Below are positions 20,496 through 56,481 of a stretch of 64,000 nucleotides of DNA, piece after piece (within the stretch, counting starts at the first letter, position 1; each line of letters opens with the position of its first letter). A program made the position numbers and the translations under genes. The notes beneath the pieces are model-generated. The model ran no database searches, was not told the DNA's origin, and saw only the letters and a list, made by a program, of their open reading frames with translations. Origin of the DNA: a virus; the IMG/VR virus record IMGVR_UViG_3300044534_000090; one strand, written 5' to 3'.

Positions 20496-21341
20496 ATGAG
20501 CAGAGCAGCGTGGTATCCGCGCGCCAACAGGACAGCTCAGAATTTCCAGCCAGCCCTGAACCGCCCGGCGATGCGCACCGTCAACGTGCTGGTGCTGCAC
20601 ACGACTGAGGGCACCTCGTGGCCGGGCTATGCGGGCGGCCGGCAGGCCCCGACCTTCACCATCAACTGCACGAGCGGGGCGCCTCAGGTGCGCCAGCATT
20701 TCCCGCTGCCGTGTGCCGCCATGGCGCTGGTGCAGCCGTCCGGGAGTCTGTCCACCAACCGGCTCAATGTGGCTCAGGTGGAGCTCGTCGGAACGGGCGG
20801 GTGGGCCAGCCCCGCCAACAGAAGCCGCCCCTACACCGTCTCTGGGCCTCACACTGACTGGACGAGGCCCGACGACATGATGCTCCGGGCGGTTGCTGAT
20901 CTCATTGCCTGGCTGCACAAGGAGTGGGAGGTGCCCCTGAAGGCGCCGATCCCGTTCGACAACTGGGCGGGCAACAACACCCACCGCATGACCGCCTCCC
21001 AGTGGGCCGGTTTCACCGGGATATGCGGCCACTCCCACGTGTGGGGCAACTACCACACCGACCCCGGATCATTCCCCATCGCCGCCTGCCTGAAGCTGGC
21101 CGCAGGCGGAACCGTATCAACCAATCCTCAGGAGGATGACATGCCCAGCGTTTCCGACATCTGGAACGGCAAGCTCCCTTTCAAGGCCACCCCGAAGGAC
21201 GACCGATTCACGGCCGGACGGCTGCTCGACGAGGCCGCCAGTCAGGCGACTTTCGCGGTCCGGGAGGCTCGCGCCGCCAAGGAGAAGGCCGAGCAGATCG
21301 ACGCCAAGCTCGACCGCCTCATCAAGAAGATGGGGGCCTGA
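20496..21341 (+). CDS. Endolysin, N-acetylmuramoyl-L-alanine amidase (Amidase_2)
   Basis: VLHTTEG, QVELVG, GICGHSHV..N.HTDPG. Confidence 0.9.
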   Translation: MSRAAWYPRANRTAQNFQPALNRPAMRTVNVLVLHTTEGTSWPGYAGGRQAPTFTINCTSGAPQVRQHFPLPCAAMALVQPSGSLSTNRLNVAQVELVGTGGWASPANRSRPYTVSGPHTDWTRPDDMMLRAVADLIAWLHKEWEVPLKAPIPFDNWAGNNTHRMTASQWAGFTGICGHSHVWGNYHTDPGSFPIAACLKLAAGGTVSTNPQEDDMPSVSDIWNGKLPFKATPKDDRFTAGRLLDEAASQATFAVREARAAKEKAEQIDAKLDRLIKKMGA

Positions 21342-21793: not shown

Positions 21794-21838
21794 ACGAAAG
21801 CCCCCCGTCTCGCATTGCGCGAGGCGGGGGGCTTTCGT
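21794..21838. terminator. Bidirectional intrinsic terminator
   Basis: ACGAAAGCCCCCCGTCTCGC-loop-GCGAGGCGGGGGGCTTTCGT between converging transcripts. Confidence 0.85.
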
Positions 21839-21841
21839 CGT

Positions 21842-21870
21842 CTCAGAACCCCCGCATACGCGGGGAAGAT
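21842..21870 (-). CRISPR. Solitary type I-E CRISPR repeat (candidate RNA anti-CRISPR unit)
   Basis: Minus strand ATCTT-CCCCGC-GTAT-GCGGGG-GTTCTGAG: 29 nt, 6-bp stem, tetraloop, 8-nt 3' handle as in I-E repeats. Confidence 0.75.
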
Positions 21871-21889: not shown

Positions 21890-21920
21890 GCGCCCCCGCA
21901 CCATCACGGTGCGGGGGCGC
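21890..21920. terminator. GC hairpin with ATCAC loop
   Basis: GCGCCCCCGCACC-ATCAC-GGTGCGGGGGCGC; core CACCATCACGGTG identical to the 55164-55198 hairpin. Confidence 0.6.
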
Positions 21921-21982
21921 CTTTCCTGTTCCCAGAGGGACGTTGTCAACGGGACCCAACGGGGAGGAACCAGTTCAGGGTA

Positions 21983-22183
21983 TCACTTCGTCTTCTCGCA
22001 GATCGCCTTCACGGCCGGCTTCGACATCTTGAACTCCTTCGCGATGCTGTACATCGTGTCGCCGCTGTCGATCGCTTCACGTATGAGCAGGTTTCGGTCG
22101 AGTCGGGCCGCTTCGATCTGGTCTTCCAGATCCTTGACCCTGATGATTGACGCCTTGATCTTGCCACGTAGTCGGTTGTCCAT
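21983..22183 (-). CDS. Small HTH protein (Aca-like)
   Basis: 66 aa; GDTMYSIAKEFKMSKPAVKAI HTH; last gene of the leftward operon. Confidence 0.75.
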   Translation of the reverse strand: MDNRLRGKIKASIIRVKDLEDQIEAARLDRNLLIREAIDSGDTMYSIAKEFKMSKPAVKAICEKTK

Positions 22184-22236
22184 GGGTCTCCCCTTCCTGG
22201 CCGAGTGCTAGGGCCCCGGATGCCGGAGCCCTTCGC

Positions 22237-22482
22237 TCAGCCCTCCATCTCGATTATCAGACTCGCCGTTTCGAACAGCTCTATCTCCAACTTGGCCGCC
22301 GTGGTGCCCATGATCTTGGCAAGCCCCCGCAGTAGGTAGGTGCTCTGGTCCTGCACCTCTCGCATGGCCTGGCGTTCGCGAGTGCCGGCTGGGTACCTGA
22401 ACTCCCGGTCTATTGCACACCGTCGGTCCGCAATGAGTTGAGCGGCGGTGAACCTCAGGTTGTTGGCCTCTTCGGCGGTCAT
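22237..22482 (-). CDS. Hypothetical protein (candidate anti-defence)
   Basis: RBS GGAGG; own promoter-like element. Confidence 0.7.
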   Translation of the reverse strand: MTAEEANNLRFTAAQLIADRRCAIDREFRYPAGTRERQAMREVQDQSTYLLRGLAKIMGTTAAKLEIELFETASLIIEMEG

Positions 22483-22500
22483 GCTGTCCTCCTAGTTAGT

Positions 22501-22546
22501 CCCGTTGACACCCATTAGTAAACCACACTGTCTAGTGTCCGTCAAG
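22501..22546 (-). promoter_or_regulatory. Repeated promoter-like element, copy 1
   Basis: Plus CCCGTTGACA-N5-TAGTAAACCA-N15-GTCAAG; minus -35 TTGACG, 17 bp, TTTACT. Confidence 0.7.
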
Positions 22547-22588
22547 ACAAGGGGAGGGCCCCGGGGCCTTCCCTGGGGCCCACTCGGG

Positions 22589-22918
22589 TCAGTGGTAGCT
22601 GACTGGCGCCGCCTCGTAGGCCTCTCGTCGCGACATGCCGAGCCGCAACCGCGCGGCCTCGTACTCTTGCGCTGACTTCCTGGCACCCCGCCACCACATG
22701 TCCGCATTCGCGAAGTCCTGGCGCCGGGCGGCCCGGTTCGATCTCTCCATGGCGTCGCGGATCTCCTCGGCGCACTCAGCAAGCCGGCGCCGGTCTTGGC
22801 GCTCCCGCGAGTCGATCATGGCTGCCTCCCGAGGGTGCGCCTCCCGCCATGCCTGCCGCTCCTCAGCGGCCCTTTCCAGGGCCCTGAGCAGATCCTCAGT
22901 GGGTGTGTCGGCGCTCAT
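22589..22918 (-). CDS. Hypothetical helical protein (candidate anti-defence)
   Basis: RBS AAGGAG; 109 aa, charge-rich. Confidence 0.7.
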   Translation of the reverse strand: MSADTPTEDLLRALERAAEERQAWREAHPREAAMIDSRERQDRRRLAECAEEIRDAMERSNRAARRQDFANADMWWRGARKSAQEYEAARLRLGMSRREAYEAAPVSYH

Positions 22919-22990
22919 GGCCGGCTCCTTCCTGGCGCCTACTGGCGCCGATAGAGAGGTCCCCGGGATCTCTCCCGGGGACCTTGTTGA

Positions 22991-23377
22991 TCAGTTCCAG
23001 TAGCGCGGGTTCATCGGCTCCGGCCCGTCCCAGTCGAGTGCCAGCCCCAGCCGGGCCAGATCCTCCGGGCCCAAGTCCTCACCCTCCCAGTGGGTGACCT
23101 CCCGGCGGCCCTTGAGGTAGGACACCGTGACATCCCAGTAGTCCGAACCGTTGAGCCGGATATCAACCTCCATCCGGCGGGGTCGGGCGGCCCGTTCCCC
23201 GTTCGCGTTGAAGGGCAGGATGCGGGCGGTGAGCACCAGGCCGGCGGCGCCGTTGCTGCGGTAGCCCCGGATCTTGGCGCCCAGGGTCATGAGCCCTGAC
23301 AGGCCGATCTGTCGCTTTGCTTCGGCGCCGACCTCGCGGCGGTACTGCTGGTCACTCTCGGTGGCGGTGGCGGTCAT
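22991..23377 (-). CDS. Hypothetical protein (candidate anti-defence)
   Basis: RBS AAGGAGG; 128 aa. Confidence 0.7.
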   Translation of the reverse strand: MTATATESDQQYRREVGAEAKRQIGLSGLMTLGAKIRGYRSNGAAGLVLTARILPFNANGERAARPRRMEVDIRLNGSDYWDVTVSYLKGRREVTHWEGEDLGPEDLARLGLALDWDGPEPMNPRYWN

Positions 23378-23398
23378 GTCGTCCTCCTTGGTTGATGT

Positions 23399-23444
23399 CC
23401 CGTTGACAAGTATTAGTAAACCAGCCTGCCTACCGGATGTCAAG
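23399..23444 (-). promoter_or_regulatory. Repeated promoter-like element, copy 2
   Basis: Same consensus and spacing; -35 TTGACA. Confidence 0.7.
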
Positions 23445-23494
23445 CCGACACAGCGAAGGGCCCCGGGATCTCTCCCGGGGCCCAGGGACCCCAC

Positions 23495-23824
23495 TCAGTA
23501 GCCACTCTCGATGCAGTCGAGCTGCCACCTGGCGTCATCGGCGCAGGAATCAGGGCAAGGGCACCCGTGGGCTGCGCAAGCGTCGCGCAGCGGCCCTACA
23601 GTCCATTCGGGAACCGGCTCCCCGCAAGCGTCGCAGGCAAGACCGGAAGGGTTGTCCCGCGTGATGCCGGCGTTCCGGGCGGGAGAGTGGCAGCAGTCAG
23701 TCAGAGGCCAATACTCGCGTCCCGTCTCATGGCCCTTGTGGGCCCTCACAGCGAGCGTCACCCAGGTCCCGCACAATGTCTTGGTGCGGTAGTAGGTGGT
23801 GCCGGTGGTGGCGATGGTGTCCAT
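23495..23824 (-). CDS. Cys-rich hypothetical protein (likely Zn-binding)
   Basis: RBS GAGGAGG; CC, CxxC and CxCxxxC clusters. Confidence 0.7.
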   Translation of the reverse strand: MDTIATTGTTYYRTKTLCGTWVTLAVRAHKGHETGREYWPLTDCCHSPARNAGITRDNPSGLACDACGEPVPEWTVGPLRDACAAHGCPCPDSCADDARWQLDCIESGY

Positions 23825-23851
23825 GTTGTCCTCCTCAGGACTAGGTGGGAA

Positions 23852-23897
23852 CCCGTTGACATGAACTAGTAAACCACTATGCCTACCGGGCGTCAAG
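23852..23897 (-). promoter_or_regulatory. Repeated promoter-like element, copy 3
   Basis: Same consensus and spacing; -35 TTGACG. Confidence 0.7.
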
Positions 23898-23930: not shown

Positions 23931-24203
23931 CCGGTACAGATCCGGTACAGGTCAGATTGAGGCCAGCCCACGGCATCCCTTGTCAGAGCTGTACTCAGTA
24001 CATCCGCTATCGGACGTCGCAAACCATCGCAGACCATCACAGGCCATCGACGCCAAGCATGAGAAAGGGCCCGCTGGCTAGGCGTAACACCTACCAACGG
24101 GCCCTGGCAACGGGTGGAGCATAGGGGATTCGAACCCCTGACCTTCTCATTGCGAACGAGGCTTCACGCCTTGTCACAGAGACGGAGTACAGATCCAGTA
24201 CAG
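23931..24203. mobile_element. attP-like region of phage X
   Basis: Paired arm-type repeats GTACAGATCCRGTACAG at 23934-23950 and 24187-24203 flank the tRNA core; three RCCATC repeats at 10-bp period (24021-24050, Xis-like); terminator 24066-24104. Confidence 0.75.
24113..24160 (-). other. att core = 3' half of tRNA-Ala(CGC), not a full tRNA
   Basis: Minus CTCGTTCGCAATGAGAAGGTCAGGGGTTCGAATCCCCTATGCTCCACC: anticodon arm, T arm and 3' acceptor strand; 5' half absent. Confidence 0.85.
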
Positions 24204-24210
24204 CACCCGA

Positions 24211-25224
24211 TTACGCCGTCGCCCTCTCCGACGCCACCAGGGCATCCAATCGTGCCGCCACATCGTCCAACGCGCGATCCCACAGGTGGCCGTACAGATC
24301 CAACGTCATCTTCGCCGACTTGTGCCCGAGCATCCGCTGCACGGCCTTCACGTCGGCGCCCGATGTGATCGCCAGCGACGCCGCCGTGTGCCTCAGATCA
24401 TGAATCCTCATGCCCTCCAGCCCGGCACGGTCTCGGGCATCCCGGAACACGCGGGCCCTCCAATTGTCCGGATCGAGCCGCCCGCCACGGCTGTTCGTGA
24501 ACAACGGCTCCCTTGACGGCCTGTCAAGGTCGAGCATCTTCAGCACGAACCCGGGGGTAGGAACGTCGCGGCTGTAGCCGTTCTTCGAGAACCGGACCCT
24601 GAGACGCTTCGTCTTCGCGTTGACGTCTCCGACGTTCAGGGCGCAGCACTCCGAGATCCTGGGGCCGCACGTCCCCAGCAACCACACCATGGCCTGATAC
24701 GGCTTGCACTCCTCGGCCAGGCCGCCGAGTTGCTGCACGGTCAGGAACCGTGCCTCGTGCGGTCGTACACGGCCAGCCTTCACCCGGGACAGGTCAACTC
24801 TTCCTTCCACCGATCCTTTCAGACACTGGACAACGTTGGACTTCAACGCCACCGACGCCGGGCCTCGGGATGATCTCAGGTCGGCGATCCAGGCCTGCAC
24901 GTCCCGCTGGTCGAGGTCCGATACGAGTAGGTCTCCCCACTTGCTGGTCACGTAGCCGGCGGCTTCGCGGGCTGTGGTCTGTGCCTTCTTGGTGAGTCCT
25001 GCTTTGCCGTCGAGCCACTTGTCCACGGCTTGCCGGACGGTCTCTGTGTCTTCGGGCTCCGGCAGGCCTTCGTTGATACGCCTCGCGTTGATCCGGTCGG
25101 CTTCAGCCCGGGTACGGCAGGAGACGGATGGCCACCCCGGGTTGTGGACCCTCCACCGCTTCCCCGTCCCCCATCGCTTCGTGTGTTGCTTGTTCTTGTT
25201 GAGCCACAGGTCCTGTACGGCCAT
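24211..25224 (-). CDS. int: Tyrosine integrase, phage X
   Basis: GPRISE, HDLRHTAAS, LGH...MTLDLY catalytic motifs. Confidence 0.95.
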   Translation of the reverse strand: MAVQDLWLNKNKQHTKRWGTGKRWRVHNPGWPSVSCRTRAEADRINARRINEGLPEPEDTETVRQAVDKWLDGKAGLTKKAQTTAREAAGYVTSKWGDLLVSDLDQRDVQAWIADLRSSRGPASVALKSNVVQCLKGSVEGRVDLSRVKAGRVRPHEARFLTVQQLGGLAEECKPYQAMVWLLGTCGPRISECCALNVGDVNAKTKRLRVRFSKNGYSRDVPTPGFVLKMLDLDRPSREPLFTNSRGGRLDPDNWRARVFRDARDRAGLEGMRIHDLRHTAASLAITSGADVKAVQRMLGHKSAKMTLDLYGHLWDRALDDVAARLDALVASERATA

Positions 25225-26546: not shown

Positions 26547-26601
26547 TTCCCATTTAGGAAGGTCAGAGGTCAAGGGTTGACACGGCGTTCCTAATTAGGA
26601 A
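26547..26601. promoter_or_regulatory. Operators and rightward promoter of the genetic switch
   Basis: Palindromes TTCCCATTTAGGAA (26547-26560) and TTCCTAATTAGGAA (26588-26601); TTGACA at 26577. Confidence 0.75.
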
Positions 26602-26852
26602 TGATGTGGGCCATGAGCAACCCAAGAGAGCGACTGGCGGCGGAGGTCAGGGCAGCCATCGGCAGGTCCGGCCTCCATCAGAGCGAAGTAGCGGCAAGGG
26701 CCGGCATGTCCCCGAGGGCCCTGCGGAACAAGGCGTGGGGCATCACGAACGTGTCGGTCGAGGACATCGGAAAGATCGCCCGGGCAACCGGCGCGAACCC
26801 GGGCGCGATGGTGAACGCCGCGTTCGGCATCGAGAAGGAGTCGGCGGCATGA
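26601..26852 (+). CDS. Cro-like HTH
   Basis: QSEVAARAGMSPRAL. Confidence 0.8.
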   Translation: MMWAMSNPRERLAAEVRAAIGRSGLHQSEVAARAGMSPRALRNKAWGITNVSVEDIGKIARATGANPGAMVNAAFGIEKESAA

Positions 26853-27052
26853 GCGATGAGCCACTGTGCACCATCCGGGAGGCGGCCCCGCGTATGGGGC
26901 TGACGGAGAAGAAGCTGCGCAACATGTGCGCCGCCCGGCAGGTCGACCACATGGAGGTTCCGGGCGAGACCGGGCAGCGGGTGTTCTACCGGCTGTCCGA
27001 GGAGCAGATCCGGGCATGGGTGAACGCCCACACGGTGAGGGCGGTGCGGTGA
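26849..27052 (+). CDS. Excisionase-like HTH_17 protein
   Basis: TIREAA..MG......RNMC...YRLSEEQI. Confidence 0.7.
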   Translation: MSDEPLCTIREAAPRMGLTEKKLRNMCAARQVDHMEVPGETGQRVFYRLSEEQIRAWVNAHTVRAVR

Positions 27053-55359: not shown

Positions 55360-56058
55360 TCACTTGCGGCGGATCTTGGAGACCATCATCTCCGAGATCC
55401 CGAGCGCCCGGGCGAGCCGCCTCCCGGTCCAGTCAGGCCTCTCGGCCACCAGTGCAGCCCTCTCGGCGACCAGCGCGTCGAGCTGGCGCTGCGCGTCGGT
55501 GATCCTGGCGGCCACGTCACGCAGGGGCGCCTCGGCCGCCCGCGCCTCCTCGGTCTGCCGCTGCTGCTCCGCCTCCCACTCGGCCTCCTCTGCGCTGGCC
55601 TCCTCGACGGCGCGGCGCAGATCCGACAGTGAGGCTACGCGACGCCACCGCCGCTCCTGGTCCCCGTGATGAGACCGGACGGAGACGGGCCCGCCCTGCC
55701 ACTCCCACTCGCCGACCACGTACATGGGCGGCCGGTAGTCGGAGATGATCACCCGGCCGTCATCCCACACGCGGCCGGCGCTCAGCCATCCGCCGGCGAT
55801 CCACTCGCACCACACCTCGGTAGGCACCTCGTCACGGTCGGCTGGGTCCAGCTCCTCGATGGTGACGCCGAGGTCCAGCACGTCGCGGTCGCCGGATCCT
55901 CCCGGCAGGGCCTCGACGGCCTCTGCGACGCCCGGCTCCGAGGTGTCGCACCACTCGCGCGCTATGGCCATCAGCTCGGCGTCATCGTGCGGAGTAGCCC
56001 ACTCGCCCGAGTAGGTGTCGCGCATCAGTACCACGTGGCGCTCGTCGTAGGTGTACAT
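55360..56058 (-). CDS. Acidic N-terminal domain fused to C-terminal Aca-like HTH
   Basis: 23 D/E vs 5 R and 0 K in the first 86 aa; C-terminal WTGRRLARALGISEMMVSKIRRK. Confidence 0.75.
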   Translation of the reverse strand: MYTYDERHVVLMRDTYSGEWATPHDDAELMAIAREWCDTSEPGVAEAVEALPGGSGDRDVLDLGVTIEELDPADRDEVPTEVWCEWIAGGWLSAGRVWDDGRVIISDYRPPMYVVGEWEWQGGPVSVRSHHGDQERRWRRVASLSDLRRAVEEASAEEAEWEAEQQRQTEEARAAEAPLRDVAARITDAQRQLDALVAERAALVAERPDWTGRRLARALGISEMMVSKIRRK

Positions 56059-56435: not shown

Positions 56436-56481
56436 CCCGCTGACATGAAAACCATAAACCCAGGTGTAGATCAGGTCTATA
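56436..56481 (-). promoter_or_regulatory. Leftward promoter of the accessory operon
   Basis: Minus TAGACC-17 bp-TATGGT followed by TTTCATGTCAGCGGGA, matching the TGTCAACGGG leader of the X promoters. Confidence 0.6.

Follow-up and report, generated by a model that had tools for sequence, protein, structure and literature searches.

The DNA analyzed in this work, referred to as the window, is a 64-kb stretch of phage DNA with a GC content of about 65% (IMG/VR record IMGVR_UViG_3300044534_000090). Between positions 21,983 and 23,897 its minus strand carries an array of five small genes, gpA to gpE, that is the subject of this work. The array belongs to a phage termed X here; a second phage, Y, is present in the same window. 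The structural and lysis genes of phage X read rightward up to an amidase gene (20496-21341), the array reads in the opposite direction, and beyond its gpA side follow the 3' half of a tRNA gene and then a gene for a tyrosine integrase (24211-25224). A first-pass annotation made from the letters alone had listed the five open reading frames with their sizes, including a cysteine-rich product of 109 amino acids, and had described them as transcribed against the late genes. Their coordinates and orientation are confirmed, and each of them is preceded by a GGAGG-type ribosome-binding site (RBS). That annotation had also taken them for a single operon. This view has to be given up because the stretch is divided into three autonomous units, P1-gpA, P2-gpB-gpC and P3-gpD-gpE, by conserved hairpins and by a 47-nt promoter cassette present in three copies (Table 1). 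We are highly confident that this anatomical description of three promoter-gene-hairpin units is correct.

Table 1. Features of the gpA-gpE array of phage X and of its borders (positions in the window).
Feature	Position	Strand	Description
gpA	23495-23824	-	109 aa, 10 Cys; lineage singleton; open reading frame with RBS; GC content at third codon positions (GC3) 0.78
gpB	22991-23377	-	128 aa; broad unnamed phage family; first gene of unit 2
gpC	22589-22918	-	109 aa; helical; second gene of unit 2, without a promoter of its own; RBS motif GCCAGGAAGG shared with gpE
gpD	22237-22482	-	81 aa; first gene of the unit ending in gpE
gpE	21983-22183	-	66 aa; long N-terminal helix and C-terminal helix-turn-helix (putative); predicted homodimer; conserved anchor of the array
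Promoter cassette P1	23852-23898	-	47-nt copy
Promoter cassette P2	23399-23445	-	47-nt copy
Promoter cassette P3	22501-22547	-	47-nt copy; palindrome ACACT-AGAC-AGTGT between -35 and -10
Conserved hairpin 3' of gpA	23458-23483	-	GGGCCCCGGGAGAGATCCCGGGGCCC; terminator-like, without U tract
Conserved hairpin 3' of gpB	22958-22983	-	closely similar to the hairpin 3' of gpA; without U tract
Hairpin 3' of gpC	22556-22581	-	closely similar to the hairpins 3' of gpA and gpB; without U tract
Tandem CCCGTTG elements	21943-21963	-	second copy (21943-21955) is the exact inverted promoter 13-mer TTGTCAACGGGAC
13-bp hairpin 3' of gpE	21890-21920	-	GCGCCCCCGCACC/GGTGCGGGGGCGC; kept in all relatives
Solitary type I-E CRISPR-like repeat	21842-21870	-	ATCTTCCCCGCGTATGCGGGGGTTCTGAG; 3' handle lost
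Bidirectional terminator	21794-21838	.	common to array and lysis operon
attP core	24113-24158	-	3' half of a tRNA gene; exact 46-nt tRNA match; integrase-side boundary of the array

Copies of the promoter cassette precede gpA, gpB and gpD; the rest of the 64 kb contains none. It is composed of a -35 element (TTGAC), 14 nt, an extended -10 element (TGG-TTTACT) and, after a few bases, the sequence TGTCAACGGG near the start site; TGGTTTACTA is found three times where 0.14 occurrences are expected. When 19 copies from the window and its relatives are aligned, TTGAC, TGGT.TACTA and TGTCA.C are invariant. A strict sigma-70 scan returned no match to the cassette, the -10 element of which is devoid of A at position 2. 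The promoter pattern matched a single contig in IMG/VR and none in genome_contigs; in metagenome_contigs, the matches listed comprise only single chance matches of low GC content, and the few host loci examined contain no copy of the motif. Neither gpC nor gpE has a promoter of its own. The hairpins following gpA, gpB and gpC are closely similar, of the GC type and lack a U tract, and that of gpA occurs after other genes in the related loci L004, L006 and L007. On the 3' side of gpE, the CCCGTTG tandem, the 13-bp hairpin, the type I-E-like repeat and the bidirectional terminator follow each other in this order. Candidate binding sites of gpE are the invariant TGTCA.C, the palindrome of variable sequence that surrounds CTAGnCAG and the inverted copy in the tandem 3' of gpE.

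Seven related loci retain promoter, leader, hairpins and gpE (present in 7/7) and differ in the cargo genes and their order; the tally over the seven is 11 cargo families plus gpE. The gpE sequences derive from four near-identical clusters and from a 47%-identical copy on the IMG/VR contig that was found via the promoter pattern. Gene order is 98 aa / 65 aa-gpE / DUF2786 protein / 117 aa in L004, 75 aa / 50 aa-gpC / gpD-gpE in L006, gpB / 75 aa / 65 aa-gpE in L007 and DUF2786 / 80 aa / 75 aa / gpE in L009. Accordingly, gpE is partnered by gpD, by the 65-aa protein or, in L009, where it has its own promoter, by no gene at all, and gpC is preceded by gpB or by the 50-aa gene. An identical leader is found before gpA, the 98-aa gene or gpB, depending on the phage, and the exchange points therefore lie at the borders of the open reading frames. 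Conserved promoters and stem-loops flank variable open reading frames here, and it is there that genes are replaced between close relatives. The DUF2786/phrog_421 protein (239-240 aa) is a cassette in some sister phages (L004 1361-2592; L009 5929-6650). In L004, two cassettes lie past gpE, which is thus not always the last gene.

The C-terminus of gpE (MYSIAKEFKMSKPAVKAICEK) exhibits a helix-turn-helix (HTH) pattern that is shared with its relatives, all of which are unnamed actinobacterial proteins. Searches of Pfam, PHROGs and NCBI-style HTH families gave no match at E < 0.001. The assignment as a terminal HTH protein put forward in the first-pass annotation is thus retained on the basis of motif, relatives and predicted dimer, without the backing of a Pfam HTH family, and gpE is a putative HTH protein. 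Modeling of a gpE homodimer yielded an ipSAE of 0.83, as compared to 0.00 for the best of three controls; among proteins of solved structure, 20 of 30 homo-pairs and one of 23 single chains come up to this mark. Contacts agree between the runs to at least 97%, the partner pLDDT (predicted local distance difference test) is at least 93, and in the predicted interface the N-terminal helices (residues 5-37) pack against each other in antiparallel orientation. The models support dimerization, short of proof. Small, and by prediction a dimeric HTH DNA-binding protein, gpE is in these respects like an anti-CRISPR-associated (Aca) regulator. A likeness of its C-terminus to the protein encoded at 55360-56058 in phage Y had also been noted. 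With the hidden Markov model of the gpE family, that protein is indeed the best non-self match among the 1111 open reading frames of the window, at an E value of 1.5, and hhalign aligns gpE residues 14-64 with residues 184-232 of its 232, collinear to the very C-terminus (P = 1.4e-4, probability 53%). The apparent sequence likeness is weak but real enough to keep.

The gpE-family profile detects similar helix-plus-HTH proteins in eight of 401 Propionibacteriaceae genomes, where the domains lie beside DNA methyltransferases or a lipoprotein gene or, in two genomes, form the N-terminus of an MNT-type antitoxin. In one genome (L161), a long near-perfect palindrome, TAGTAAGTTCTACTTGCGTAAGC...GCAAGTAGAACTTACTA, is located directly 3' of the gpE-like HTH gene. 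Three other roles were considered for gpE and rejected: excisionase (an HTH_17 protein is encoded beside cro at 26849-27052), immunity repressor (a separate switch has its own operators) and CasPR, which needs CapR and AP2 domains.

The solitary repeat expected after the HTH gene was recovered as a CRISPR-like repeat of type I-E, and the inverted promoter 13-mer lies between the two. Its stem-loop, CCCCGCGTATGCGGGGG, is identical to the array repeats of a Propionibacteriaceae genome (G013). Arrays of type I-E with TCCCCGC-N4-GCGGGG(A/G)TGAGCCG-type repeats and 61-nt spacing are present in 64 of the 401 sampled genomes of this family. The window contains no cas genes, such that a host repeat sequence together with its hairpin resides on a mobile element outside a CRISPR-Cas locus, as described for Racr and Cracr elements. 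The 3' handle of the window copy reads GTTCTGAG, whereas L003, L006 and the host arrays read GTGAGCCG. In L003 and L006, the complete repeat with its handle precedes a second spacer-like segment, which is homologous to the second of the spacers in the three-repeat mini-array of phage Y. The spacer-like segments did not match the few host loci compared, which is a very limited test, and no credible match emerged from Rfam, its CRISPR repeat families included. Among 162 type I-E spacers from six family genomes there is one near match to the window, the remainder being at chance level. This spacer of G013 (L168) matches positions 20586-20618, within the lysin gene of phage X, at 27 of 33 nucleotides, with 27 of the 28 nucleotides at the 5' end in agreement, and falls on the conserved amidase motif. 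The type I-E systems of the family therefore meet phages of the phage X kind.

The same layout occurs twice more, with different components. On the minus strand of phage Y, a similar promoter tail (TGGTTTTCATGTCAGCGGGAC), a 99-aa gene, a hairpin, a gene for a protein with an acidic domain and an HTH, and three type I-E-like repeats follow each other; the gpE homologue is fused here to the acidic domain and encoded directly before the repeats. At the same genome position as the array, the cultured phage B22 (L001 19680-20566) carries a 36-nt promoter in two copies, which contain the palindrome ATACTA-TGGCCC-TAGTAT and both precede a conserved leader of 39 nt, as well as two small genes and a gene for a CopG-type ribbon-helix-helix (RHH) protein, gp27 (E = 2.4e-6). 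Two type I-E-like repeats of B22 are spaced 61 nt apart, the first overlapping the 3' end of annotated gene 26. The B22 genome paper describes the leftward genes as variable and of unknown function and mentions neither the repeats nor the duplicated promoter nor the RHH gene (PMC5831693). Three unrelated DNA-binding proteins in the same layout constitute the strongest argument that the arrangement is functional.

Phages X and Y also share a peculiarity at the ends of the transcripts. In both phages, the 10-mer at the presumed transcript start (TGTCAACGGG in phage X, TGTCAGCGGG in phage Y) is found again in exact inverted form where the HTH unit ends on its 3' side, and the inverted copies follow the A/G difference between the two (phage X, 21943-21955 versus 22499-22511 and 23397-23409; phage Y, 55214-55223 versus 56436-56445). 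If transcription is assumed to start at the motif, the minimum-energy fold of both transcripts contains a duplex between 5' and 3' end of about -24 kcal/mol with pair probabilities near 1. The occurrence of this pattern in two lineages is suggestive only; just as well, a protein might bind to the 10-mer at both ends.

The cargo genes themselves offer few leads. GC3 is 0.77-0.88 for the five open reading frames, and the ratio of nonsynonymous to synonymous substitution rates (dN/dS) versus orthologues of related contigs is about 0.2-0.4 for gpB, gpC, gpD and gpE. Together with the RBSs, these values identify the four as real genes; gpA has no orthologue for such a comparison. The gpA protein retrieved only itself among 5.8 billion proteins, and its fold has no match in the structure Atlas. 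Exhaustive HMMER searches with gpB returned at least 129 clusters at E < 1e-3, 69 of them at E < 1e-10 and mostly from actinophages, none with a Pfam family or a solved relative. Calling the four upstream genes orphans, as had been done, is thus inappropriate for gpB; gpA and gpD are lineage-restricted. The model of gpB (pLDDT 93, dN/dS 0.21) folds as helix, five-strand sheet, helix, and its matches in BFVD are uncharacterised actinophage proteins only. Among solved structures, PsiB (Z 5.8, root-mean-square deviation 3.4 Å over 97 residues) and AcrIIA11 (Z 4.8) rank highest, both within noise; these two and the MotA C-terminal domain were rejected as fold relatives, all being under the noise level of the tool. 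PsiB is a plasmid anti-SOS protein and, as a top row at noise level, a lead for the broad phage family. Orthologues of gpC in L006 and L008 give a dN/dS of 0.30-0.43, and its Atlas model is helical with no informative match. For gpD (dN/dS 0.18-0.62), only close relatives in two clusters were found, and the model is a three-helix bundle (pLDDT 76).

A Foldseek search of the PDB gave no match for gpB or gpD. The check by structure prediction that had been recommended was thus unproductive for gpA, gpC and gpD and stayed within noise for gpB. Protein-pattern scans of IMG/VR with gpA, gpB and gpE yielded nothing, PADLOC matched neither the five array proteins nor five cargo proteins of relatives, and in Pfam, PHROGs and PADLOC taken together the five proteins and the relatives' cargo are unmatched except for DUF2786 and phrog_421, both of unknown function.

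Phage X is a temperate actinophage siphovirus, and its portal protein is 58% identical to that of the Propionibacterium freudenreichii phage B22. The 46-nt tRNA piece is identical to tRNA genes of Luteococcus, Acidipropionibacterium, Cutibacterium, Raineyella and a few other actinobacteria, and no whole tRNA was found at 24113-24158; the piece is therefore regarded as the core of the phage attachment site attP, and sequence identity makes a member of the Propionibacteriaceae the most likely host. Two 17-nt direct repeats, GTACAGATCCrGTACAG (23934-23950 and 24187-24203), flank the tRNA core and are probably the integrase arm-type sites of an intact attP. In the integrated state, the five genes would lie at one end of the prophage and read inward. 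When DNA of the array region (2.4-2.8 kb) was compared with 50,697 phage records, the tRNA fragment was the only match, and host loci containing the attB tRNA harbor no related prophage. The immunity module of phage X is located elsewhere and comprises an ImmA-like M78 protease, a divergent Cro-like HTH_31 gene and the excisionase-like HTH_17 gene, so that gpE need not serve as repressor, Cro or Xis. Two palindromic operators of the main repressor (TTCCnAnTTAGGAA) are present at 26547-26601 and nowhere else in the window. They read TTCCCATTTAGGAA and TTCCTAATTAGGAA and lie within this 55-nt switch between a leftward 118-aa gene and the Cro-like gene, the second one between the -35 element and the start codon of the latter.

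The first-pass annotation had attributed anti-defence functions to the array through guilt by association. The conserved gpE anchor, the type I-E repeat mimic and the replicas in phage Y and B22 speak for this attribution, which obtains no help from likeness to known Acr (anti-CRISPR), Aca or defence proteins and extends to gpA, gpB and gpC by association alone. Genes for Acr proteins are enriched less than 1 kb from repeat mimics (PMC10651486), and viral type I-E arrays resembling CRISPR RNA (crRNA) silence cas genes (bioRxiv 10.1101/2024.10.29.618823). Taken together with the threefold occurrence of the layout, this points to an anti-CRISPR role of the arrangement. A single Aca has been predicted to control several adjacent anti-defence operons via a common motif (bioRxiv 10.64898/2026.07.27.740549); three identical promoters fit this type of control, which suggests regulation of all three units by gpE. 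We therefore tentatively put forward, with a probability of about 0.4, that the array is an anti-CRISPR or anti-defence island built on acr-aca logic. This reading is plausible for the end comprising gpD, gpE and the repeat, where the anti-CRISPR context has good support, and gpD is by position the best candidate for an Acr protein.

The array is a modular set of accessory genes between attP and the lysis genes, at the future prophage end. On this proposal, its strong host-type promoters, being without the operator of the main repressor, would fire at phage entry. A gpE dimer would then bind the common promoter element and dampen all three units, RNA from the repeat might titrate or re-program Cascade/Cas6e, and gpD and, less surely, gpA, gpB and gpC would be proteins that inhibit the defence of the host. 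Homology for cassette exchange between co-infecting phages could be provided by the conserved promoters and hairpins. A far-reaching version can be formulated, in which temperate phages of Propionibacteriaceae possess a dedicated, recombination-ready anti-CRISPR island beside attP. Standard promoter/leader and hairpin elements would let any small inhibitor gene plug in, a new family of coiled-coil-HTH dimers (gpE) would control all units, the duplex of 5' and 3' elements would link the fate of the mRNA or the processing of crRNA-like RNA with the regulator, and at least two of gpA to gpD would be new families of type I-E Acr proteins. In this entirety, we regard it as unlikely.

Several observations weigh against an anti-CRISPR island. 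The repeat of the window has lost its 3' handle, and the repeat is decayed in L004 and L007 and absent in L009, all of which keep the array all the same; the array is consequently independent of the repeat. Of the five genes, gpD and gpE alone are located no more than about 650 nt from it, which limits the reading for gpA, gpB and gpC in their separate transcription units. No CRISPR repeats are found near the distant gpE-like genes of the eight family genomes; the neighborhoods of HTH homologues, proposed earlier as a check, are thus favorable in the seven loci with a gpE anchor and swapped cargo and unfavorable further afield. Relatives of gpB occur in several phage contexts and on one ParA-bearing element, that is in unrelated surroundings. 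Neither the cargo nor gpE matches Pfam, functional PHROGs, PADLOC or solved Acr and Aca structures, the -10 element of the cassettes is non-canonical and escapes a strict sigma-70 scan, and binding of gpE to the promoters we purely infer.

The main rival holds that the array consists of morons expressed in the lysogen for superinfection exclusion, anti-phage defence or host fitness, with gpE as a local regulator and the repeat mimic as a separate neighbor. Each unit has a host-type promoter of its own and a hairpin, and the absence of the main-repressor operator and the position at the prophage end beside attP fit it just as well as they fit an anti-CRISPR island. Likewise in its favor, the locus varies among related phages (see also PMC5831693). 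The array is moreover retained by relatives with a decayed repeat or none. Genes located between the lysis and integrase regions of mycobacteriophages are often expressed in the lysogen and confer defence, which counts for this rival as well. It is harder to reconcile with products that are all small and soluble, without a membrane, nuclease, ATPase or other defence-type domain and without a PADLOC match, with gpB relatives in early regions of lytic-looking phages, and with the tight linkage of a small DNA-binding gene to type I-E repeat mimics in three unrelated versions. We consider it somewhat unlikely.

More restricted is the idea that the last unit alone acts against CRISPR: gpE, with or without the repeat RNA, would inhibit or silence the type I-E system of the host, either as a bifunctional Acr-Aca protein like AcrIF24 or as a repressor of cas genes, and gpA to gpD would be ORFan cargo hitch-hiking on a recombination-prone promoter. 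The conservation pattern is in accordance with this, since gpE and the hairpin/repeat region downstream are the only conserved coding and non-coding parts, gpE of L009 has its own promoter and no partner, and the phage Y homologue, fused to an acidic domain, directly precedes the repeats. The Cracr preprint also reports a link between type I-F Cracr RNAs and the HTH protein AcrIF24 (bioRxiv 10.1101/2024.10.29.618823). The 66 residues of gpE, however, are nearly all taken up by the dimer helix and the HTH, the motif common to all three promoters points to local regulation, and the few host loci examined contain no copy of it. We regard a role of the last unit alone as rather improbable. Finally, gpB-gpC and gpD-gpE might form addiction pairs of the toxin-antitoxin or a similar kind, in which gpE would be the antitoxin that binds DNA. 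This is in line with two bicistronic units with a promoter-less second gene, with the small, predicted dimeric DNA-binding gpE and with the MNT-type antitoxin of two family genomes that begins with a distant gpE-like HTH. The partners, however, are swapped among relatives and those of gpE are unrelated, no product matches a toxin family, and this very improbable explanation was dropped.

We know of no anti-CRISPR proteins or Aca regulators from Propionibacteriaceae, a family with dairy, skin and wastewater species in which about one sixth of the sampled genomes have a type I-E array of the window's repeat type. The array provides a ranked list of candidates, gpD first, then gpA, gpB and gpC, plus seven further cargo families in sister phages. 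A candidate regulator comes with it, as do three unrelated versions of one layout for comparison, one of them in the cultured phage B22. In addition, it is a case of ORFan shuffling by promoter/stem-loop cassettes in a phage that is not T4-like. Should the cargo be unrelated to defence, the locus would still be a clean natural case of plug-in gene cassettes in an actinophage.

Among known systems, acr-aca operons (Aca1, Aca2, Aca14; bioRxiv 10.64898/2026.07.27.740549) resemble the array in that variable small genes lie upstream of a conserved small DNA-binding dimer, one motif occurs in several adjacent promoters, and the setting is that of a prophage. By layout gpE is co-transcribed with gpD. 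Unlike in those operons, no array gene is validated or predicted by homology as acr, the candidate operator is not a clear inverted repeat, and gpE matches no Pfam family of the Aca type and has a long helix, predicted to form an antiparallel coiled coil, before a minimal HTH. With Racr solitary repeat units (PMC10651486) and the mini-arrays of type I-E Cracrs (bioRxiv 10.1101/2024.10.29.618823), the array shares a type I-E repeat of the host family that resides in a phage outside CRISPR-Cas and adjoins small genes of unknown function and a regulator; sister phages have a two-spacer version homologous to the phage Y array. It deviates in the single repeat of the window, with the handle GTTCTGAG in place of GTGAGCCG, and in the upstream 'repeat', a hairpin of 13 bp that resembles a terminator.

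PeSL cassettes of T4-type phages (PMC2839356, PMC4122927) likewise have a conserved promoter and stem-loop that flank ORFans, with content differing exactly there. On the other hand, phage X is a temperate actinophage siphovirus and not a T4-like myovirus, it has one short array beside attP in place of many hyperplastic regions, this array has a dedicated regulator gene, and no evidence of excised circles was found. Genes 26-28 of phages B22 and Doucette (PMC5831693) are similar to the array in neither gene nor promoter sequence; the B22 regulator is an RHH protein of the CopG type instead of an HTH protein, and two repeats in canonical 61-nt spacing are present. Just as in the array, however, lysis genes are followed by leftward small genes and then by attP and integrase, and a duplicated promoter cassette, a small DNA-binding protein and type I-E repeat mimics at the 3' end are combined in one locus.

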